A stretch of DNA of 64,000 nucleotides, from positions 6,064 through 70,063 of the forward strand of contig JAFGJY010000116.1 in NCBI GenBank assembly GCA_016928875.1, written 5' to 3'. The position numbers and the translations under genes were made by a program. Positions 4,142 through 42,420 of this stretch are shown here, piece after piece. The number at the start of each line of letters is the position of its first letter. Position 1 is the first letter of the stretch. The stretch is from Candidatus Omnitrophota bacterium. Lineage in GTDB: Bacteria; Omnitrophota; Omnitrophia; JAHJGZ01; JAFGJY01. The notes beneath the pieces were generated by a model. It did no database searches, was not told where the DNA came from, and was given only the letters and a program-made list of their open reading frames with translations.

Positions 4142-4963
4142 TTACAATCCGAATATCGAAACAACGATCTGGTCGCCGTAAAAGATCGCCGCAACCGCCC
4201 CCATAGACAAGAATGGCCCATAGGGTATGGTCGCTTCTTTTTTAACGAATTTATAGTATAACGCAAATATTATCGCAAAGTATGGTGATAGCAAAAACGC
4301 TATTACGGTATATTTCACGCCAACGAACGCGCCGATCATCGCTAAGAGCTTAATGTCCCCGCCGCCCATAGCTTCTTTCTTGAAAATGTAGCTGCCCACG
4401 ACCGCCAGCACATAAATTATCGCACCACCGCACAACAATCCCAGAATAGAGTCCGCGATAGCAAGCCGTTGATCAACCTCGAACTGGACCTGCGGCGCAC
4501 AAAAGCTGAACAACAAACCAACCAACATGCCGTAGAATGTGATCTCATCAGGAATGATCTTGAACTTGAGATCGATCACACTCGCTACTACAAGCGAACA
4601 AAACAAATACAATAGGAAAACAGCACGGGCCGTGAGGCCAAAATATGAGAACGTGAGAACGAACATCCCCGCTGTCGCCAGCTCGACTAACACATAACGA
4701 ATCGATATCGGCGCGCTGCACTGTCTGCACTTCCCGCGCAAGATCAGATAACTTATGAGCGGAATGTTATCATACCACACGATCGGTTTAAGACACATTG
4801 GACAATACGACGCCGGTTTAATGACCGATTTTTGTTCATCCGGCAAGCGATAGATACAAACATTGAGAAAACTCCCGACTATCGCTCCGAAAATAAAGAT
4901 GATCGTCATCGCCATAGAGGGCGTATCGCGTAAAAACTGAATATATGCATCTACGTTCATCAT
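4142..4963 (-). CDS. pilD: prepilin peptidase / N-methyltransferase (A24 family)
   Basis: 273 aa, polytopic. CPMC...CRQC zinc-ribbon pair and GGGDIKL catalytic-Asp motif. Confidence 0.88.
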   Translation of the reverse strand: MMNVDAYIQFLRDTPSMAMTIIFIFGAIVGSFLNVCIYRLPDEQKSVIKPASYCPMCLKPIVWYDNIPLISYLILRGKCRQCSAPISIRYVLVELATAGMFVLTFSYFGLTARAVFLLYLFCSLVVASVIDLKFKIIPDEITFYGMLVGLLFSFCAPQVQFEVDQRLAIADSILGLLCGGAIIYVLAVVGSYIFKKEAMGGGDIKLLAMIGAFVGVKYTVIAFLLSPYFAIIFALYYKFVKKEATIPYGPFLSMGAVAAIFYGDQIVVSIFGL

Positions 4964-4985
4964 TGGTCCTTTTTATCTGTTGTTA

Positions 4986-5849
4986 TTAATGCGACAACTG
5001 TGCCAGTAACGCTTTTTTCATTACATCGACCGGAGCATCATGCCCCGTCCATAATTCGAACGCCCGAACGCCTTGATATAACAGCATCATGAGCCCGTTC
5101 GAGGCGTTAAGGCCATGAGCACGAGCAGCGTTAACCAGCTTCGTTTCAGCCGGATTATAGATCAGATCATAAACACACGCGCTCGTATGGGCCAGATCTC
5201 TTTCCGCGATAAGTTCAGGGTCATCGGCATGCATGCCGCATGTCGTGGCATTGACGATGAGATCAAATCTCTGAAGATCATGTGCAATATTCTCAGGTTC
5301 AATAACTTCAAGAGCACTACTACTGAAGTCCCCACTCGTTGCATAGTGCTGTCTGAGCGCAAACGCTTTCTGTAGATCCTTATCAGATATGACGACCTTG
5401 TGCGCTTTGCTTTTTAACAGCGCGTACAAACATGCTTTACCGGCACCGCCGGTACCAATAAGCAAGGCTGTTTTACCTGCCGGCGAGAACGAAAGATCGA
5501 TCGCAAGGGCCTTTAAAAAACCATACCAGTCCGTGTTATAGCCGCAGTAAAACCCGCTTTCAAGCGTCACTGTATTGACCGCCCCGATAGCACGCACACT
5601 TTCATCACTGCAACAATATACATCTTTCACTTCAGTGATAAATTTCGTTTTATATGGAACCGTGACATTGAATCCCGCATACCCCGAAGCATGAAGGCTT
5701 TGAATGAATGCATCAACTTCTCTTTCAGAGGGGATCTCGAGCGATCTGTATTCCGCATCGATACCGAGCGCCTTGAATCCGGCATTATGCATGCCCGGTG
5801 AGAAGGAGTGATGCAAAGGATATCCGATAAGCGCGTATTTCTTTGTCAT
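4986..5849 (-). CDS. aroE: shikimate dehydrogenase
   Basis: 287 aa. SFSPGMHN, NVTVPYK and GTGGAGKA NADP-binding motifs. Confidence 0.9.
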   Translation of the reverse strand: MTKKYALIGYPLHHSFSPGMHNAGFKALGIDAEYRSLEIPSEREVDAFIQSLHASGYAGFNVTVPYKTKFITEVKDVYCCSDESVRAIGAVNTVTLESGFYCGYNTDWYGFLKALAIDLSFSPAGKTALLIGTGGAGKACLYALLKSKAHKVVISDKDLQKAFALRQHYATSGDFSSSALEVIEPENIAHDLQRFDLIVNATTCGMHADDPELIAERDLAHTSACVYDLIYNPAETKLVNAARAHGLNASNGLMMLLYQGVRAFELWTGHDAPVDVMKKALLAQLSH

Positions 5850-5880
5850 GCCCGTGTGCGGTGGATCGTGTGATGAGGAA

Positions 5881-5909: not shown

Positions 5910-7445
5910 CTATTTTTTAACTAAGATCTTGTTTATAGCTACAAGGTATGCTTTAACGCTTGCTTCAATCACATCGGTACTGGCGCCGCGGCCGCTATAT
6001 TCATTAGCTCCGTGTGCTACCTTGACGCTTACCTCCCCGAGCGCGTCTTTGCCCGAGGTAACTGAATGGATCGAGTAATCAACAAGCTTTGCCTTTACCC
6101 CGGTCACTTTCTCGATGGCTTTATAGCACGCGTCGACCGGCCCGTCGCCCGAAGACTGTGAGGTCCTCTCTTCGCTGTCTTTCTTTATTCGAATTACAGC
6201 CATCGGCGGTTTGTCGGTCTCGACGTTCACCTTCAGATATTCAAGATGCCACGCGGATAACGATTGCGCGATCTGGTCTTGAACGATCGCTTCGATATCT
6301 TCGTCATAAATATTCTTTTTGCGGTCGGCCAAAACCTTAAAGGCCGCAAATGCCTTCTCTACCTGCTGGTCATTGAGATCGAACCCGAGACGTACAAGCT
6401 GGGTCTTGAATGCATGCCTGCCCGAATGCTTTCCCATGACCAAGCGCGTTTCGGTCAAACCGATATCCTTGGGATCCATGATCTCATAGGTTTGGCGTTT
6501 CTTCAGAATACCATCCTGATGGATCCCAGCTTCGTGACTGAATGCATTTCGTCCTACCACAGCTTTATTGGGCTGGACCGTAATACCCGTCATGTTCGAG
6601 ACGATCTTAGACGACTTCATGATCTCGCCGACATTGATCATAGTATCCGCATGGTAAACCTGTTGACGGGTCTTCAACGTCATTACAACTTCTTCAAGCG
6701 ACGCGTTGCCCGCTCGTTCACCGATACCGTTGACAGTACACTCAACCTGATTAGCTCCGTTCAAAATGGCGCTCAATGAGTTGGCGCTTGCAAGACCAAG
6801 ATCATTATGGCAATGCACGCTTAATACTACCTTTTTACCAAGGCTCGGATTTTTCTCGACCAAATAGGCGATCAGCGTACCGAATTCTTCCGGCAGCGTG
6901 TATCCTACCGTATCAGGGATATTGATCGCCGTCGCTCCGGCCGCGATAGCGGTCTTAACGACCTCAGCCAGAAAATCCCGTTCGGTCCTGGTCGCATCTT
7001 CAGGAGAATACTCGATATCGTCGAAATAGTTCGCGGCATACGTTATCATCTTAGTGACCGTATCCAGGATCTCTGCCTTTTCCATTTTAAGTTTATATTT
7101 GCGATGGATCGGCGACGTTGCCAGAAAAACGTGGATCTTTTTCTTCTTGGCGAATTTGAGCGCTTCACACGCTGCATCGATATCACCTTTACGCATACGC
7201 GCGAGCCCCGCGATCACAGGTTTCTTGACCTTTTTTGAGATCATCTGGATCGCTTCAATTTCGCCAGGTGAAGCTGCCGGAAATCCCGCTTCAATAATAT
7301 CGACATTGAGCCGTTCAAGCTGTTCAGCGACCTTGATCTTCTCTTCCGGCGTCATTGAAGCGCCGGGCGATTGCTCACCGTCACGCAGTGTAGTATCGAA
7401 AATATAAACCCTGCGAGGTTTTTTTGTCTTTTTCTTTGTTACCAT
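5910..7445 (-). CDS. leuA: 2-isopropylmalate synthase
   Basis: 511 aa. DTTLRDGEQ and HCHNDLGLA motifs, plus a C-terminal LeuA regulatory domain length. Confidence 0.93.
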   Translation of the reverse strand: MVTKKKTKKPRRVYIFDTTLRDGEQSPGASMTPEEKIKVAEQLERLNVDIIEAGFPAASPGEIEAIQMISKKVKKPVIAGLARMRKGDIDAACEALKFAKKKKIHVFLATSPIHRKYKLKMEKAEILDTVTKMITYAANYFDDIEYSPEDATRTERDFLAEVVKTAIAAGATAINIPDTVGYTLPEEFGTLIAYLVEKNPSLGKKVVLSVHCHNDLGLASANSLSAILNGANQVECTVNGIGERAGNASLEEVVMTLKTRQQVYHADTMINVGEIMKSSKIVSNMTGITVQPNKAVVGRNAFSHEAGIHQDGILKKRQTYEIMDPKDIGLTETRLVMGKHSGRHAFKTQLVRLGFDLNDQQVEKAFAAFKVLADRKKNIYDEDIEAIVQDQIAQSLSAWHLEYLKVNVETDKPPMAVIRIKKDSEERTSQSSGDGPVDACYKAIEKVTGVKAKLVDYSIHSVTSGKDALGEVSVKVAHGANEYSGRGASTDVIEASVKAYLVAINKILVKK

Positions 7446-7505: not shown

Positions 7506-8495
7506 TTACCGGATCCAGCTCATCATCGCGCGTAATCTCTTGCCGATTTTTTCTATCTGATGAGCCTGGCCCGCTTTTTTATACTTGTTGTAATTCGGTC
7601 TACCTTTCTTATTTTCATTGATCCATTCTTTTGCGAATGAATCGTTCTTGATCTCCTGTAATATTTTCTTCATCTCAGCTCGTGTTTGCTTCGTAATGAT
7701 GCGTTTACCGCGCGAATAATCACCGTACTCAGCAGTATCAGAAACGACATGACGCATACCCATGATACCCTTCGAATAGATAATATCCGTGATCAGCTTG
7801 AGCTCATGTAAGCATTCAAAATATGCGATCTCAGGCTGATACCCGGCATTCACCAAGGTCTCAAATCCGGCAATAATAAGCTCGCTTACGCCGCCGCACA
7901 ACACAACCTGCTCTCCAAAAAGATCAGTCTCGGTTTCTTCTTTAAAGGTCGTTTTAATCACCCCGCCATGAGTACCGCCGATGCCTTTGGCATATGCCAA
8001 TGCGTATTGTAAGGCTTTACCTGATGCATTCTGATGTATCGCCACTAAACAAGGAACTCCTTTACCTTCTTCGTATTGAATGCGTACTAATGTACCCGGG
8101 CCTTTGGGTGCAACCATGAATACGTCAACATTCTTCGGCGGAACGATCTGCTTGAAACGAATATTGAAACCATGCGAGAATATAAGCGCTTTCCCTTTTT
8201 TGAGATGTTTCTTGATATACTTCTCATATACCATACCCTGCACATGGTCTTGGGTCAGGATCTGGATGAAATCGCCTTTTTTCGCTGCTTCTTCAGCGCC
8301 GATCGGTTTGAACTTGTCTTTGATCGCTTGCTTATAATTTGCGGTCCCTTTAAGTTCGCTTACGATAACCTTTACACCACTATCACGCAAATTCATCGCT
8401 TGACCTCTCCCCTGAGCACCGTATCCGATGATCGCAACAGTCTTGTTCTTCAAATAACTTAATTTTGCATCTTCGTCATAATAAACCTTTGCCAT
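7506..8495 (-). CDS. ilvC: ketol-acid reductoisomerase
   Basis: 329 aa. [15 protein letters not shown]-type NADP motif and class I length. Confidence 0.93.
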
Positions 8496-8527
8496 TCTGT
8501 TTCCCTCCTTTGAATTCCTTATGTATG

Positions 8528-9091
8528 TTATTTCTTCTTTGCTTTTGCTGTCTTTTTCTTCGTCGCCGTCTTGGCCTTACCTGCCGGGCCCTGCTTGGCC
8601 GTATTAAACCGCAATTCGGAAGCACGTGCGATCGCAATGATCCCGGTATTGACGACTTCCAGTATTCCGAACGGCTTCATGAGCTCGATCAAGGCATCGA
8701 TCTTACCTTCAGGACCCGTCATCTCGATCGTCAATGTCCTTGGATTCACATCCACTATCTTAGAACGAAATGTGTTAACGATCTGTATGATCTCGGCTCG
8801 TGTCGCAGGCGTAACCGCAACTTTAATAAGCGCCAGTTCGCGATCAATCGAATCCTCCTGAGTCAGGTCGGCGACCTTGATCACATCGATCAATTTGTTA
8901 AGCTGTTTCATGATCTGTTCTAATATCCTCTCATCCCCGTCGACCACGATGGTCATCCGGGAAATCGTCGGGTCCTCGGTCTCACCGACCGCAAGCGAGC
9001 TGATGTTGAACCCCCGCGCTGAGAACAAACCTGAGACGCGTGTTAGAACACCAAAATGGTTCTCAACCAAAATACCAATCGTATGCTTCAT
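8528..9091 (-). CDS. ilvN: acetolactate synthase small (regulatory) subunit with Lys-rich C-terminal tail
   Basis: 187 aa. ACT-domain N-terminus [24 protein letters not shown]. An extra tail reads [21 protein letters not shown]. Confidence 0.9.
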
Positions 9092-9135
9092 AATTAAACT
9101 CCTTTATAATCTTTAATGATTGTCTCATGTCTCAC

Positions 9136-9150
9136 GTTTCAAGTCACAGG
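9136..9150. repeat. inverted-repeat arm flanking the four-helix-bundle cassette (promoter-distal side)
   Basis: Plus strand gtttcaagtcacagg. Its reverse complement matches 9638-9652 (14/15) and 9659-9670 (12/12). It contains the last codons and the stop of the ORF. Confidence 0.75.
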
Positions 9151-9561
9151 CAAACAAAGCCCATACGATGCAACAGAATTATCGGAAACATAAGAATTAG
9201 TTATTGATTTTCTAAAACTATACAACTTCTTTCCAAGAGTCTTAAATCTTTCCAAAAGAGAACTATATTCAGCTTGCTCTAATGCGCCGGTCAAAAATAA
9301 CATCTCAAGGTGATATTTCGTTTCATCGCATGACGCAAGAGCATATGTTAAGAACCTAACATAATCAGTTTTGTATTTCTTCCGGCCAAAACCCTCAACG
9401 ATATTTGCGCCAATCGATTTTGCAGCACGTCTTATTTGGCTCCCTGTTTCATATTTTTCATATTGAGGTAAGTGAGTTAACGTAATTTGATGGATATCAA
9501 CTGCCAATTTTTTGCTTAATTGATACACTTCCAAGTCTTCATAACTTTGCGGCATGATCAA
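9139..9561 (-). CDS. four-helix-bundle protein (23S rRNA intervening-sequence protein / Avd family)
   Basis: 140 aa. YEDLEVYQLSKKLAVDIHQIT...QIRRAAKSIGANIVEGFGR...FLTYALASCDETKYHLEM is the family signature as I recognise it. Confidence 0.8.
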   Translation of the reverse strand: MIMPQSYEDLEVYQLSKKLAVDIHQITLTHLPQYEKYETGSQIRRAAKSIGANIVEGFGRKKYKTDYVRFLTYALASCDETKYHLEMLFLTGALEQAEYSSLLERFKTLGKKLYSFRKSITNSYVSDNSVASYGLCLPVT

Positions 9562-9637
9562 CCACCTTTGTGTCTTTCTACAGTGCTTCAGGCTGCAAGT
9601 CTCAGGTCTCAGACCAATAGCTCCATGTCCCGTCCAA

Positions 9638-9670
9638 CCTGTAACTTGAAACTTGTGGCCTGTGACTTGA
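9638..9670. repeat. inverted-repeat arm(s) flanking the four-helix-bundle cassette (ilvB side)
   Basis: cctgtaacttgaaac followed by a second partial copy, cctgtgacttga, that directly abuts the ilvB stop codon. Confidence 0.75.
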
Positions 9671-11347
9671 TTACGCCATGCCGCCGATCATGCGATTGAT
9701 GGCCGACCCTGCCGGCACCATCGGGTACACATTCTCTTCCCGTTCAACGATGAAATGCAGGATCACCGGACCATCATGCGCGATCGCTTCTTTGATCGCC
9801 GGCTCAACATCTTCTTTACGTGCAATGCGGATCCCTTTGGCACCATACGCCTCGGCAAGCTTTATAAAATCAGGATTACCGGCCTGCAGGTCTGTCTCGG
9901 AATACCGTTTGCCATAAAACAATTCTTGCCATTGCCGCACCATACCCAGAAAACCATTATCCAAGATCGCGACCTTGACCGGGACTTTATAAAACACCGC
10001 TGTAGCAAGTTCCTGAATATTCATCTGTATGGAACCATCACCGGCAATGTCAAAAACGATCGCATCTGGCGCAGCAACTTGTGCACCGATCGCAGCCGGA
10101 AGACCATAGCCCATTGTCCCCAGACCGCCACTTGTAACGAGCGTTCGCGGTTTAGTGAAACCACACCATTGGGCTGCCCACATCTGATGCTGCCCCACTT
10201 CGGTCGCAATGATCGCCTTATTCTTAGTAAGCTTGCCGATCATCTCAATAATATACTGCGGACGGACCTTGTTATCATTCTTATATTTTAGCGGATACTT
10301 TTCCTTCCACTCCGCGATCTGTTTGAGCCATGATGCTGTCTTTGGACCCTTCACATATTTCTTCAGTTCAACCAATGCATCTTTTGCATTCGCGACGACC
10401 GGAATATCCACCTTAACGTTCTTTGAGATCGACGAAGGATCGATATCAATGTGGATTATCTTCGCATGCGGTGCGAATTCGTCGATCTTGCCGGTCACGC
10501 GATCATCAAAACGCGCCCCGACCGAAATAAGAAGGTCTGAATCCTGGATCGCATGATTCGCATATGCGGTACCATGCATACCCAACATCCCCAAGGACAA
10601 TGGATCGTCCTCTGGGAATGCGCCAAGACCATTCAATGTTGTTGTCACCGGGATCTGGGCTTCTCGTGCCAATGTCGTCAATTCTTTTGCCGCATTTGAA
10701 ATGATCACACCGCCACCGACATACAAGATCGGTTTTTTGCTATTAGTAATTGCTTCCGCTGCAATTTTTATCTGTTTGATATTAGGTTGCGTATGCGGGT
10801 TATAGCTCCTGATATAACATTTCTCAGGATACTTGAATTCCGCCTCAGCGAGCGTAACATCGACCGGAATGTCGACCAACACCGGCCCCGGCCTGCCTGT
10901 CTGTGCAATATAAAACGCCTCTTTTATGATCCGCGCCAGGTCATTGACGTCTTTGACCAAAAAATTATGTTTGGTTATCGACCGTGTTATGCCGACCAGG
11001 TCTGCTTCCTGAAACGCATCATTACCAATAAGAAAGGTCTTCACCTGTCCGGTAAAAGCAACCATCGGAACAGAATCCATATACGCCGTCGCGATCCCGG
11101 TCACCAGGTTCGTTGCCCCCGGTCCCGATGTTGCTAAACACACCCCAGCTCTGCCGGTAACACGCGCATAGCCATCAGCCATATGCGCCGCTCCTTGTTC
11201 ATGACGAACAAGAATGAAATTCAATGTACTTTTGTATATTTCATCAAAAATAGGAAGCACTGAACCACCGGGATATCCAAAGACGGTATCAACCTTCTCC
11301 CGCTTCAGTGCCTCTATAAAGATCTTGCTGCCTTTCATTTTCATCAC
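9671..11347 (-). CDS. ilvB: acetolactate synthase large (catalytic) subunit
   Basis: 558 aa, ThDP enzyme. [24 protein letters not shown] and [15 protein letters not shown] motifs. The start is GTG 11347 or ATG 11344, after SD AAAGGAG. Confidence 0.93.
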
Positions 11348-36983: not shown

Positions 36984-39287
36984 TCATTCAGGCTGAACGC
37001 TATTCTGTTGTTGTACCTGACGGGCGTTATGCTCTTGAACTACTTGGCGAATGCGATCTTCAAGCTCTTTTACTTTCGGGTTGCCCGGCTCTAATTCATT
37101 AGCTTTCTGCAAATAAGGTATCGCATCGGAAACGCGTCCGATACTGCACAAAGCATAGGCAAGATTGTAATATGCTGAAAAGAATTCAGGATTGGCCTTT
37201 AGCGACATCTCATAGAATTCGATACATTTATCAAATTCTCTGCGCTGAAAATACATCGCCCCGAGATTTAAATAGGCTTGATACAGCATATCGTCATATT
37301 CAACCGCAAGTTGATAATGATGCAACGCTTCATCGAATTCTCCTAATTTATTAAGCGTGTTGGCCAAGTTATAATGCCCCTTGGCATGATACGGATTAAG
37401 CTCCAATGATTTTGTGTGTTCACGCTTTGCATCCACGTGTTGGTTCATCGCAGAGTATTCATTGGCAAGTAAAAAAAGCGTTTCCCATGCAAGCGGCTCG
37501 TCTTTAACCGATTTTTCGAACAATATCCTTGCCTTATCATGCCGCCCCATTCGTTGTAATGCTTGCCCGAATTGCCTATTATAAAAAGCGTGCGCAGGCT
37601 TCCAGATCCAATAATGTGACACAATGCCAAAAATAAAAGAAGCGATAAAAAATGGGATCAAGACCATGTGAACGAGCGGCGAAAAGACCCACAACCCCGC
37701 ATCGGGATCTATATCCTGCAGGTCACGCATCTTTTTCTTCTTTGACCTGCTCACTTTTTTCGTGTTGGCTGAAACTCTATCATCCCCCTTGCCATTACCG
37801 TTTAACTTCCCCGGTATAAGTGCGTGTAGCCGCGACCTGAGCGGTGTCACTGACCTTAGATCCTCCTTATACCAGCGGATCCAATGAAACGCCGCGAACA
37901 GACCAACCAACGTCCATACGGTAAAACAAGGATTAGGGCTCTGGAGCGGGAATCCATAGATCGCAGTGAAAAAGACCGCGCCAAAGCTCATCATAAACCC
38001 GATCGTTAATGATTGCCCTTGAAAATTATTACTGCGCACCAATAACTGATGCCCCATCCAATAAAGCCCACCTTGTATCATCAGGAAGAATAGAAAACCG
38101 AAGATCCCTAGTTCGGCAAGCGTCTGCAACCAATCGTTATGCGTCCTACGCACGAACACATCGGGCCCTGTCGAAAGTTGCTCTTTACGTGTCCGATAAG
38201 GTTGATAGTTTATCTTGAAGTTCCCTAACCCTACTCCTAACCATAGGTGTTCTTTTACCATCTTCAATGTATTCTGCCAAATGAGAATACGCTGCATTGT
38301 CGTATCGCCCACATTGATAATGCTCTCATCGATCTCGTCCGCCGGCGTAAACACTTTCACCCCCGGTGCGAACTGTCTGAATTCTCCGAAGAACCCTTTG
38401 ACTTGAACGTTATACAGATCAACAAATTTATTTGCCTTCTGCAATGCCGGTATAAACGTTAAGGCGGAAATCAGCATGATAAAGATACATATCGAAGCAA
38501 ATATTATAACGACTGTTTTGAAAAGCTGCTTCTGTCTATCCGTAACAGCAAAACGCAATATACCGGTCATATGCGCAATAATGATGTAGCCGGCGATCAT
38601 GATCGTGCTCATAGTCAAGCCGATCCAGACCGCCTTGGTCTTATTGATAAGGATGAAAAAACCCGTAATGACTGATAAAATTATGTACAGGATAGACCGT
38701 TTGGAGCCCGCATAAGAAACAGCCAGCCAAAATACCATCGGGAATATCATTGACATATATTCTCCGGTAAAGTTCGGGTTCCCGTCCGTTGCGTTCCCTT
38801 TGAAATTTTGGACCAGAAAAGGAAAATCGATGTTAAATATCTGTAAGGTGCCATAAATTGCCAACACCGTTCCAAGCCCAACGATCCAGTTCATATAATA
38901 AATGACATGTTCTTTGCTCGTGCAGTAATTCGCTAACACAAAAATTATCAAATAATAACTTATCCATCGTTTAAGAAAAACGAACCCCTCATAAGGATTG
39001 AGCATTTGGCTAAAGGAGAGGAGCATCATGGCCATGAACAAGGCAAGCGGAAGAAATATTATTATCTTCCTCGTAGTAAGCCGTTCTGCGATGCTTAAAC
39101 GAAGCGAATAAAGACCAAAAAGGATCACACCGATCGACTGGACCAGAACTTCTTTATAAATGTCGTAAATACTAAAAAAGTAACCTTCCCCCTTGCCAAT
39201 AACGTAGTAAAGCGGCACCGATATGATCGCGCACACTATGACAAGGTGGATAAACGTGTCAATTATTTTGATAAAGACGTTTCTCAT
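36984..39287 (-). CDS. O-antigen ligase-family membrane protein fused to C-terminal TPR repeats
   Basis: 767 aa. About 12 TM with the Wzy_C-like loop (RRTHNDWLQTLAELG). The C-terminal 230 aa carry TPR-like repeats (AKGHYNLANTL, YQAYLNLGAMY, FSAYYNLAYAL). Confidence 0.75.
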   Translation of the reverse strand: MRNVFIKIIDTFIHLVIVCAIISVPLYYVIGKGEGYFFSIYDIYKEVLVQSIGVILFGLYSLRLSIAERLTTRKIIIFLPLALFMAMMLLSFSQMLNPYEGFVFLKRWISYYLIIFVLANYCTSKEHVIYYMNWIVGLGTVLAIYGTLQIFNIDFPFLVQNFKGNATDGNPNFTGEYMSMIFPMVFWLAVSYAGSKRSILYIILSVITGFFILINKTKAVWIGLTMSTIMIAGYIIIAHMTGILRFAVTDRQKQLFKTVVIIFASICIFIMLISALTFIPALQKANKFVDLYNVQVKGFFGEFRQFAPGVKVFTPADEIDESIINVGDTTMQRILIWQNTLKMVKEHLWLGVGLGNFKINYQPYRTRKEQLSTGPDVFVRRTHNDWLQTLAELGIFGFLFFLMIQGGLYWMGHQLLVRSNNFQGQSLTIGFMMSFGAVFFTAIYGFPLQSPNPCFTVWTLVGLFAAFHWIRWYKEDLRSVTPLRSRLHALIPGKLNGNGKGDDRVSANTKKVSRSKKKKMRDLQDIDPDAGLWVFSPLVHMVLIPFFIASFIFGIVSHYWIWKPAHAFYNRQFGQALQRMGRHDKARILFEKSVKDEPLAWETLFLLANEYSAMNQHVDAKREHTKSLELNPYHAKGHYNLANTLNKLGEFDEALHHYQLAVEYDDMLYQAYLNLGAMYFQRREFDKCIEFYEMSLKANPEFFSAYYNLAYALCSIGRVSDAIPYLQKANELEPGNPKVKELEDRIRQVVQEHNARQVQQQNSVQPE

Positions 39288-41963: not shown

Positions 41964-42151
41964 AGAAAGACAATTAACAATGAATAATTAAAAATGAGTA
42001 ATCACTATCGTATAAATGCCCGATAAAAAGTTCCACTAGCATTGGAACAATTATTTACACATTATCTTCTTGCATTTCACCTAGTGATACACAGCATTCA
42101 CTAATTCAAAAATAATTCATTATTAATTATGCATTACTCATTGCAGTTATG

Positions 42152-42237
42152 GTGGGGAGAGCAGGATTTGAACCTACGAAGGCTGACGCCAACAGATTTA
42201 CAGTCTGTCCCCTTTGGCCACTTGGGTATCTCCCCTT
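42152..42237 (-). tRNA. tRNA-Tyr (anticodon GUA)
   Basis: 86 nt with a long variable arm. GGGGAGATACCCAAGTGGCCAAAGGGGACAGACTGTAAATCTGT...CTCTCCCCACCA. CCA is encoded. Confidence 0.92.
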
Positions 42238-42245
42238 ATATCAGT

Positions 42246-42412
42246 AAGGATGAAGGGCAAAGGATAAAGGTTAAAGTGAACGAAAAAGATAGCTCTTTCA
42301 TCAAAAACGTTCACGGTAAACCTTCGATCTTGTCTATCAGCAAAACCGGATAACGCAACCAGAATTCATACATTCCGACCACTTCATCCTTTATCCTTTG
42401 CCCTTTATCCTT
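42246..42412. repeat. 25-bp inverted repeat bracketing the Thr-Tyr tRNA spacer
   Basis: aaggatgaagggcaaaggataaagg (42246-42270) against cctttatcctttgccctttatcctt (42388-42412), 24/25 complementary. An inner inverted repeat is GTGAACG (42276-42282) / CGTTCAC (42308-42314). Confidence 0.75.
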
Positions 42413-42420
42413 GTCTTCTC

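Follow-up and report, generated by a model that had tools for sequence, protein, structure and literature searches.

Inverted heptanucleotide arrays around a four-helix-bundle gene in the ilvB-ilvN spacer of a Candidatus Omnitrophota bacterium

The genes for the large and small subunits of acetolactate synthase, ilvB and ilvN, normally lie side by side, and a spacer of 579 nt that holds an intact gene for a small four-helix-bundle protein raises the question of what this gene is doing between them and how it came to be there. The case considered here lies in a 64,000-nt stretch of a Candidatus Omnitrophota genome (contig JAFGJY010000116.1, positions 6,064 to 70,063; hereafter the window), where the insert is bracketed by repeats that recall the intervening sequences (IVSs) of 23S rRNA. 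On balance, we consider it probable that the insert is a selfish or commensal cassette of the IVS type, a kind of element that settles in transcribed spacers, be they in operons, between tRNA genes or in rRNA helices, and that it is not part of ilv regulation. The gene and the repeats around it are arranged as follows.

9638 to 9670, minus strand: 5' outer heptamer array, reading tcaa, then the four GTCACAG-type units GTCACAG, GCCACAA, GTTTCAA and GTTACAG, then G
9585 to 9612, minus strand: inner array in the opposite orientation, units CTGAGAC, CTGAGAC, TTGCAGC and CTGAAGC, a lag-7 array
9139 to 9555, minus strand: four-helix-bundle gene, 138 amino acids plus stop, PF05635/TIGR02436
9139 to 9151, minus strand: 3' arm of the perfect 13-bp stem core, pairing with 9658-9670
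9122 to 9150, minus strand: 3' heptamer array, reading c, then the four units CTGTGAC, TTGAAAC, GTGAGAC and ATGAGAC

What kind of repeats are these? A sequence-only reading of the window, made from its letters and open reading frames (ORFs), had described a 15-nt inverted repeat together with a direct repeat, and every coordinate was as claimed when the sequence was read again. gtttcaagtcacagg at 9136-9150 is the inverted counterpart of cctgtaacttgaaac at 9638-9652 with 14/15 matches, and the single mismatch between gtttcaagtcacagg and cctgtaacttgaaac becomes a G-U pair in the minus-strand RNA; cctgtgacttga at 9659-9670 abuts the ilvB stop codon (TAA, 9671-9673); GTCTCAnGTCTCA stands as a direct repeat at 9122-9134 and 9599-9611; and the repeat does include the final three codons of the ORF together with its stop (CCT GTG ACT TGA, 9150-9139). 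The nature of the repeats was misjudged, however: the inverted and the direct pair are both parts of the same tandem heptamer arrays, each made up of about four degenerate 7-nt units, and a simple inverted-repeat pair does not describe them well. The 5' outer array (lag-7 array 9636-9664; inverted repeats I1 and I4) holds both ilvB-side repeat copies, at 9659-9670 and 9638-9652, and the inner array holds the GTCTCAnGTCTCA copy at 9599-9611 (inverted repeat I5, 16 nt at 81%). The 3' array (lag-7 array 9120-9150) is the reverse complement of the 5' outer array and overlaps the last three codons and the stop; its inverted repeats are I1, 29 nt at 79%, and I4, 13 nt at 100%. A perfect 13-nt inverted repeat joins 9139-9151 to 9658-9670, its outer arm abutting the ilvB stop.

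A self-similarity scan of the whole window at lag 7 returned eight arrays, three at the cassette and four in two tRNA spacers, so that just three spacer sites account for all but one of the arrays in the 64 kb; lags 5, 6, 8, 9 and 10 gave one or two arrays each. With at least four tandem 7-nt units, a co-directional spacer and inverted pairs, the locus belongs among the intergenic heptanucleotide arrays. The 12-mer TCAAGTCACAGG, with at most one mismatch, matches four times in the window against 0.10 expected, a count that none of 100 shuffles reached. The fourth of these matches (38395-38406) was rejected as a real copy, being a chance match inside a 767-aa ORF.

What protein do the arrays enclose? 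The family named by the sequence-only reading holds in sequence and in fold. PF05635 matches with E=9.8e-31 and 106.6 bits (cut-off 33.8) over model positions 1-105 of 106, and TIGR02436 with E=2.5e-30 and 104.9 bits (cut-off 24) over positions 1-108 of 109; the profile search confirms such a gene in the 579-nt insert. The AlphaFold2 model (predicted local distance difference test 90.9) has four long helices, at residues 9-27, 37-57, 62-88 and 94-121, followed by 17 disordered C-terminal residues that run into the 3' array. Its best fold match is Xcc0516 (2GSC; target-normalised TM-score 0.93-0.95, root-mean-square deviation 1.1-1.7 A), and BT_0352 (2RLD) matches with 0.81-0.90; these two are also the best solved sequence matches, with E about 1e-7. 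Of the conserved family motif GxxRxxxSxxxNxxE (Lin 2006; Zhang 2014, PMC3936711) the part RxxxSxxxNxxE is present as QIRRAAKSIGANIVE, with Q in place of the first G, and the motif residues are invariant or nearly so in alignment A1 of the relatives. The protein is mildly basic (isoelectric point 8.8). Its ORF is intact as claimed, but the length of 140 aa given earlier is most likely to be replaced by 138 aa, counted from ATG 9555. The ORF as listed (9139-9561) starts at TTG 9561, an unlikely start codon; exact look-up of the 140-aa TTG-start protein found no record, and the annotated protein begins at the ATG. The 138-aa product is identical to NCBI P0001, a 'four helix bundle protein' from a Candidatus Omnitrophica metagenome-assembled genome (MAG).

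The label 'Avd family', which had also been attached to the gene, survives only as far as the shared superfamily. Avd is the accessory protein of diversity-generating retroelements (DGRs), and a remote similarity to it exists: the PHROG 'Avd protein of DGR' matches with E=5e-6, and the Avd structures 4DWL and 8UB7 are among the fold matches. They are distant, 4DWL with a Foldseek E of 0.02, a target-normalised TM-score of 0.85 and 12% identity, far behind Xcc0516 and BT_0352. The gene is flanked by ilvB and ilvN, with neither a reverse transcriptase nor template/variable repeats beside it, and because of this we do not take it for an Avd. It is extremely improbable that the protein is a DGR accessory Avd; judged by sequence and fold, it is a PF05635 protein of the Xcc0516/BT_0352 type, related to Avd at the superfamily level only.

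Is the bracketed arrangement peculiar to this locus? One genome per species was scanned with an alignment of 24 relatives, which yielded 258 relatives, and the best 80 loci (47-61% identity) were analysed; they stem from Omnitrophota, Nitrospirota, Desulfobacterota, Chloroflexota, Planctomycetota, Verrucomicrobiota, Acidobacteriota, Bacteroidales, Clostridia and Thaumarchaeota. In the 220-nt flanks of the gene, the highest self-identity of a 35-nt stretch at lag 7 averaged 0.67, compared with 0.39-0.46 at other lags and 0.42 at lag 7 in control segments. A heptamer array of at least 28 nt occurred within 300 nt of the gene in 64/80 loci, and of the spacers that adjoin the gene 55 of 95 had an array, compared with 18 of 109 among the remaining spacers of these loci (odds ratio 7, p=9e-10). 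When the closest array on either side was compared, the two had opposite orientations in 37 loci and the same orientation in 3 (p=2e-8), with about six units in the median array of the family. The best ungapped helix between the two flanks, mostly 28-50 nt long, beat all 10 shuffles in 64/73 loci, and the duplex energy was -86 kcal/mol with the true partner against -69 kcal/mol with a permuted one (p=2.5e-8). As inverted arrays recur in this way across the relatives, the IVS-like bracket is a property of the whole family, and the earlier comparison with an ORF enclosed by inverted repeats in a 23S rRNA IVS applies family-wide as well as here. Two observations concern the size of the arrays. 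Upstream of P0081 (L094, 2245-2400), four modules of about four GTCGCAG-type units each are separated by short spacers, and modules of four units (28 nt) recur in the window, in L090, in the fourfold GGGAATC of Xanthomonas and in the 28-bp stem of Coxiella.

In the window copy, too, terminal inverted repeats close a stem around the insert. The 13-bp core and its flanking pairs make up an imperfect helix of about 30 bp, the core is present in both the minimum-free-energy and the centroid structure of a 611-nt fold, and the duplex of the insert ends reaches -34.2 kcal/mol against -19.3 +/- 3.8 kcal/mol in shuffles, 0/500 of which were as low. The outer and inner arrays upstream of the ORF can also form a hairpin with each other, but it is not exceptional (z=-0.8 for the fold of the 5' region). 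These results also bear on the idea that the repeats are chance matches or decaying remnants and the gene an ordinary resident. The arrays are indeed short and the fold of the whole insert is unexceptional, but the fourfold occurrence of the 12-mer against 0.1 expected, a duplex energy that no shuffle attained, the concentration of the lag-7 arrays of the window at three spacer sites and the same architecture in 64/73 relatives leave this idea very improbable.

Do the arrays belong to the gene or merely to the place? They are inherited and duplicated together with the gene. In L090, three divergent PF05635 genes occupy successive spacers of a polysaccharide cluster, and the heptamer types GTTGAGT, GTCACAG and AGATGGA are distributed one per gene, each inverted across its own gene; in L002, two tandem PF05635 genes each have their own heptamer type inverted across them. 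P0023, P0048 and P0081, which are 57-61% identical to the window protein, keep the GTCACAG/CTGTGAC type, and heptamer similarity rises with protein identity (Spearman 0.37). Two loci of one Chloroflexota MAG, L046 and L067, share 92.6% identity over 474 nt that consist of array, ORF and array, with unrelated flanks; the shared stretch begins at the upstream array and in L067 ends with the downstream array, and in L067 the array follows the stop codon of the preceding gene without a gap and stops a short way ahead of the following Shine-Dalgarno sequence. L002 and L003, whose protein products are the same, match at 98.3% over the gene plus 20-30 nt of adjoining sequence and diverge farther out. 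The expectation of the sequence-only reading that the repeats accompany other copies of the gene was borne out across genomes (the L090 paralogues, L046/L067), which is where it was tested; within the 64-kb window, tblastn detected no second four-helix-bundle paralogue. Eight samples with the same cassette at the same site displayed no change in length and no variation in array copy number, so that the elements are not hypervariable on short time scales.

The settings of the relatives are mutually unrelated and include the ilv operon, polysaccharide/exosortase clusters, cas loci and accB, and the orientation is mostly sense: the gene points the same way as its upstream neighbour in 64/75 loci, as its downstream neighbour in 57/69 and as both in 48/64. 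No relatives were found on viral contigs, which gives no hint of transport by a phage. A blastn screen for relatives embedded in rRNA, made with two segments of E. coli 23S rRNA, had no match in the fetched loci. The cassettes were strikingly frequent in polysaccharide/exosortase clusters (Wzz, Bac_transf, EpsH, glycosyltransferases), with up to three per cluster (L090, 964-4964; L002, 3413-4366; L001, 4001-4369; L094, 2501-2881). Two genes of L002 appear to be interrupted: CoA_binding_3 (338 aa) and Bac_transf (138 aa) at 4399-5866 are apparently one split gene, and Epimerase_2 at 6137-7235 is apparently split into 271 and 83 aa; both could be assembly frameshifts or pseudogenes. Some annotated family proteins (P0091, P0050, P0075, P0038, P0013) have N- or C-terminal extensions with a 7-residue period, such as three copies of MQDAGCR or SHKPQVTSHKLQVT. 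The MQDAGCR extension represents three heptamers read in all three frames, which indicates that the gene ends are probably mis-called or that arrays are sometimes translated.

Arrays also occur without the gene, and two such elements lie in the window itself.

42246 to 42414, minus strand: ORF-less element of the AAGGATA type, arms 42246-42280 and 42379-42414, in the tRNA-Thr/tRNA-Tyr spacer
41968 to 42144, minus strand: ORF-less element of the AATGAGT type, arms 41968-41998 and 42112-42144, in the tRNA-Tyr/tRNA-Gly spacer

The AAGGATA element forms a stem of about 31 bp and folds with -69.9 kcal/mol (z=-6.7; 0/200 shuffles as good), and the AATGAGT element folds with z=-3.1. These stem-loops look like gene-less versions of the ilvB-ilvN cassette, from which both differ in heptamer type. 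The spacers between the three tRNA genes on the minus strand (42236-42420 and 41964-42149) are unusually long, at about 185 nt each. In the loci of the relatives, 61/183 arrays have no recognised PF05635 gene within 300 nt, and many of these are inverted spacer pairs; ORF-less arrays near a cassette share its type slightly more often than in permuted loci (4.57 vs 4.17 +/- 0.13 of 7). A Clostridia MAG (L022, 113-561) has an unbroken 449-nt array of about 64 units of the GATACAG/GATTCAG type 1.9 kb from a PF05635 gene, with the neighbouring spacers filled by further arrays of two types.

Has the insert always been part of this operon? Its insertion is specific to the lineage. The closest ilvN relatives (82-90% identity) have the same downstream gene order and no PF05635 gene at the ilvB-ilvN site, where their spacers measure 30 nt (L006), 104 nt (L007, L008) and 126 nt (L004, L005); in L089 a length of 44 nt is probable, the sole basis being a 'CGTAA' where the contig ends. 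That the insert separates two genes that normally adjoin, as the sequence-only reading had it, is confirmed by this comparison of junctions. The view of a self-contained cassette that landed in a biosynthetic operon is likewise upheld, by the gene-free spacers and by the duplication of array, ORF and array as a unit. The 126-nt gene-less spacer of L005 (1015-1140) contains an imperfect hairpin and a tandem CAGTCATCAGTCAT, which may be an element remnant or chance.

The same comparison bears on a regulatory role, in which the array hairpins would be sites for a regulator or for post-transcriptional control, and the protein would bind them and tune ilvB against ilvN. There is precedent for such a role: in Geobacter metallireducens, inverted pairs of five-unit heptamer arrays lie between proB/proA, cbiG/cobQ, moaA/mosC and other gene pairs, and the annotators named them putative global-regulator sites ('class 3'; PMC2700814). 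The TAACTGA repeats of Beggiatoaceae were proposed to be translational regulators in a paper that saw no evident mechanism of their transmission (PMC4679880). The intact protein with its conserved motif and the slight sharing of types between ORF-less arrays and the local cassette would also fit. However, the closest relatives have this operon in a form that lacks the insert, the host contexts of the family are unrelated, heptamer types differ among the cassettes of one locus (L090), and the two ORF-less elements of the window are of other types than the cassette. A host regulatory module is therefore improbable, and we return to the transcribed-spacer cassette.

How would such a cassette live within the operon? 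Its surroundings in the window are these.

9671 to 11347, minus strand: ilvB, acetolactate synthase large subunit; TIGR00118 863 bits, three thiamine-pyrophosphate-enzyme Pfam domains
9556 to 9569, minus strand: Shine-Dalgarno sequence AAGGTGG and 6-nt spacer before ATG 9555, read from the sequence
9099 to 9105, minus strand: Shine-Dalgarno sequence AAAGGAG of ilvN, intact, with the 3' array (9122) ending 17 nt before it
8528 to 9091, minus strand: ilvN, acetolactate synthase small subunit; TIGR00119 215 bits
7506 to 8495, minus strand: ilvC
5910 to 7445, minus strand: leuA

The gene order, all on the minus strand, is ilvB, the small ORF, ilvN, ilvC and leuA, followed by a 371-aa ORF of unassigned function, and the ilvB stop TAA (9673-9671) directly adjoins the cassette. 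A scan of the insert detected nothing like a terminator and, ahead of the ORF, nothing like a promoter; one weak promoter-like site lies within the ORF, a count no higher than in shuffles. Since the ORF has no promoter- or terminator-like site and possesses its own Shine-Dalgarno sequence, we infer that it is most likely co-transcribed with the ilv genes. No Rfam match at E<=1 was obtained in 8400-10400, and PADLOC returned no defence-system match. The C-terminus of ilvN (8528-8605) bears a lysine-rich tail of about 25 residues beyond the small-subunit models, which stop near residue 157-160 of 187. The non-overlapped ORFs of at least 200 aa in the window (1-64000) are all on the minus strand (42/44 of those listed), and the two on the plus strand overlap longer minus-strand ORFs.

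From these elements a course of events can be proposed. A widespread cassette, consisting of a PF05635 gene between inverted heptamer arrays, would have entered the ilvB-ilvN spacer of this Omnitrophota lineage in sense orientation, so as to span from just after the ilvB stop to just before the ilvN ribosome-binding site. It would be transcribed within the ilvB-ilvN-ilvC-leuA message and translated from its own Shine-Dalgarno sequence, and in the transcript the two arrays would pair into a stem around the ORF, as in the 23S IVSs excised by RNase III. By analogy with these, RNase III may also process the ilv transcript at the stem, which we regard as plausible though somewhat doubtful. Binding of the mildly basic protein to its own repeat arms is a more tentative proposal, and any action of the protein on the arrays is, if anything, slightly more tentative still.

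Several observations weigh against this reading, some concerning the window copy and others the family. In the window, the near-total minus-strand bias of long ORFs makes the sense orientation of the cassette uninformative. The fold of the whole insert is not exceptional (z=+0.57), only the terminal stem standing out; the arms pair no better than arms swapped between loci (-54.9 vs -57.0 kcal/mol); and with a perfect core of just 13 bp and arrays of four units, against a family median of about six, the stem is weaker than in most relatives. At TAA|TCAAG ... GAGAC|AATCA no target-site duplication is visible, and no exact insertion boundaries can be defined by aligning the relatives' spacers, which are too diverged for this. 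Across the family, stem mismatches comprise 132 G.U and 152 A.C, which is no G.U excess, so the data do not favour sense-RNA pairing in particular over a constraint at the DNA level; sense and antisense duplexes differ marginally in stability (p=0.05), those of the window having -54.9 and -41.6 kcal/mol, respectively, when 150-nt flanks are used. The S23p protein of the Coxiella IVS, moreover, has been reported as probably not expressed (PMC4990558).

A further point comes from the repeat side. Metagenomes were scanned with RACYTGTGACYTGYRACYTG, and at 80 loci the gene was sought with a clade-specific hidden Markov model, which may miss distant paralogues. The match lay within an array of at least 35 nt in 63/80 loci, mostly ORF-less, and a gene of the window clade was found within 400 nt of the match in none, so the arrays need no neighbouring four-helix-bundle gene. 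Several bacterial matches have the layout GTCACAG array, loop, CTGTGAC array, Shine-Dalgarno sequence and ATG. The association is one-sided: given the gene, an array is highly probable; given an array, the gene is not. Perfect (CTGTGAC)n or (CCTGTGA)n microsatellites turned up in low-GC, eukaryotic-looking contigs (L141, L169, L115, L121, L157; L121 and L157 come from one Joint Genome Institute metagenome project); they are unrelated to the bacterial elements and contaminate the repeat-side search.

Might the arrays then act on DNA, with the RNA stem incidental? They could be the ends of a mobile or recombining unit, either as terminal repeats or single-stranded DNA hairpins for an enzyme encoded elsewhere, or as products of template switching and slippage. 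The complementarity of the arms is real and conserved, and a constraint on DNA explains their symmetry equally well. Besides the missing strand-specific G.U excess, the antisense duplex of the window arms alone is nearly as stable as the sense duplex (-31.1 vs -34.2 kcal/mol), the unit duplicated in one genome (L046/L067) is exactly array, ORF and array, and ORF-less array pairs are common, as miniature inverted-repeat transposable elements (MITEs) are beside autonomous transposons. On the other side, the cassette has no transposase or recombinase, the four-helix-bundle gene being its only ORF, and no target-site duplication was seen, so that these marks of a transposon or MITE are absent; the eight same-cassette samples are constant in length, and about 85% sense orientation and the location in transcribed spacers fit a dependence on transcription. 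We therefore give an action on DNA a minor, though not negligible, probability, and note that it is compatible with an IVS-type cassette, the two not being mutually exclusive.

Taken further, the IVS-type cassette could be one member of a larger group. PF05635 proteins may be the partners of an unrecognised class of elements made of inverted heptanucleotide arrays, in which copies with the ORF would be autonomous and the many ORF-less hairpins of operon, tRNA and rRNA spacers dependent; the dependent forms would include the short tandemly repeated repetitive (STRR) sequences, GGGNATC, TAACTGA, the Geobacter 'regulator sites' and possibly the ORF-less 23S IVSs. We put this joint proposal forward as speculative. 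In it, the 7-nt units would be binding sites of the protein, which would help them to spread, expand or be processed; if true, the proposal would account both for the long-noted surplus of heptamer repeats across bacterial genomes and for where rRNA intervening sequences come from. In the open-access literature we found no paper linking PF05635/TIGR02436 to heptamer arrays, and the GGGNATC study itself remarks that detailed literature on heptameric repeats is lacking (PMC4692102).

For the ilv operon alone, the consequences of the insert are probably small, and the family-wide pattern of arrays may be more interesting than the window locus. It ties together three separate puzzles, namely the role of PF05635/TIGR02436, the origin and spread of 23S IVSs and the excess of heptanucleotide repeats. 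The PF05635 genes beside cas, polysaccharide and biosynthetic operons may be mere passengers of spacers, which calls for caution in guilt-by-association annotation; reports of 23S_rRNA_IVP genes within cas loci (PMC3936711; PMC10910872) would be explained by passenger cassettes that occupy operon spacers.

Among known systems, the ORF-carrying 23S IVSs of Leptospira and Coxiella (S23p ORF) share with the cassette the protein family, the ORF inside a stem of terminal repeats and, most likely, a place inside a host transcript without a promoter of their own. They differ in lying within helix 25 or 45 of 23S rRNA, whereas the cassette sits in the mRNA of an operon spacer, and their excision is known, whereas that of the cassette would be an extrapolation. 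The 428-nt IVS of Coxiella burnetii has a 28-bp terminal stem cut by RNase III, compared with the 13-bp perfect core of the cassette, and upstream of its S23p ORF are three to four tandem GACAGAT heptamers in strain-dependent number, the first of which is the 5' RNase III cleavage site (PMC4990558). In Xanthomonas campestris, a four-unit GGGAATC array lies between bccP (XCC0517) and XCC0516, over the start codon of the latter (PMC4692102, supplement). XCC0516 is the crystallised PF05635 protein, and the authors who described the array did not comment on the family link (PMC4692102). Like the window gene, Xcc0516 thus stands beside a housekeeping gene and a four-unit heptamer array, which differs in type; the solved homologues Xcc0516 and BT_0352 form pentameric rings, and the window protein was modelled as a monomer. 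The DGR Avd (4DWL), a basic pentamer that binds RNA and the reverse transcriptase, has the four-helix-bundle superfamily in common with it; the two differ in sequence (12% identity), and the window gene has no reverse transcriptase or template/variable repeats beside it.

Repetitive extragenic palindromic sequences and bacterial interspersed mosaic elements (REP/BIME) with their REP-associated tyrosine transposases (RAYTs), and the pairs of MITEs and transposons, resemble the arrays as short extragenic repeats in spacers of which few stand beside a protein gene, and they resemble the cassettes in that ORF-less and ORF-containing versions coexist; REP/BIME-RAYT systems differ in having a fixed palindrome in place of tandem heptamers, and the four-helix-bundle protein is without a known catalytic fold or motif. 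Finally, the heptanucleotide arrays described as cyanobacterial STRR, GGGNATC of Xanthomonas and Nostoc, TAACTGA of Beggiatoaceae and class 3 of Geobacter share with the arms of the cassette the tandem 7-nt units, often four or five, and the location in spacers between co-transcribed genes, those of Geobacter also being inverted pairs. They have been treated as free-standing, in papers that make no mention of the protein family, whereas the arrays of the cassette enclose a PF05635 gene and diverge with it.

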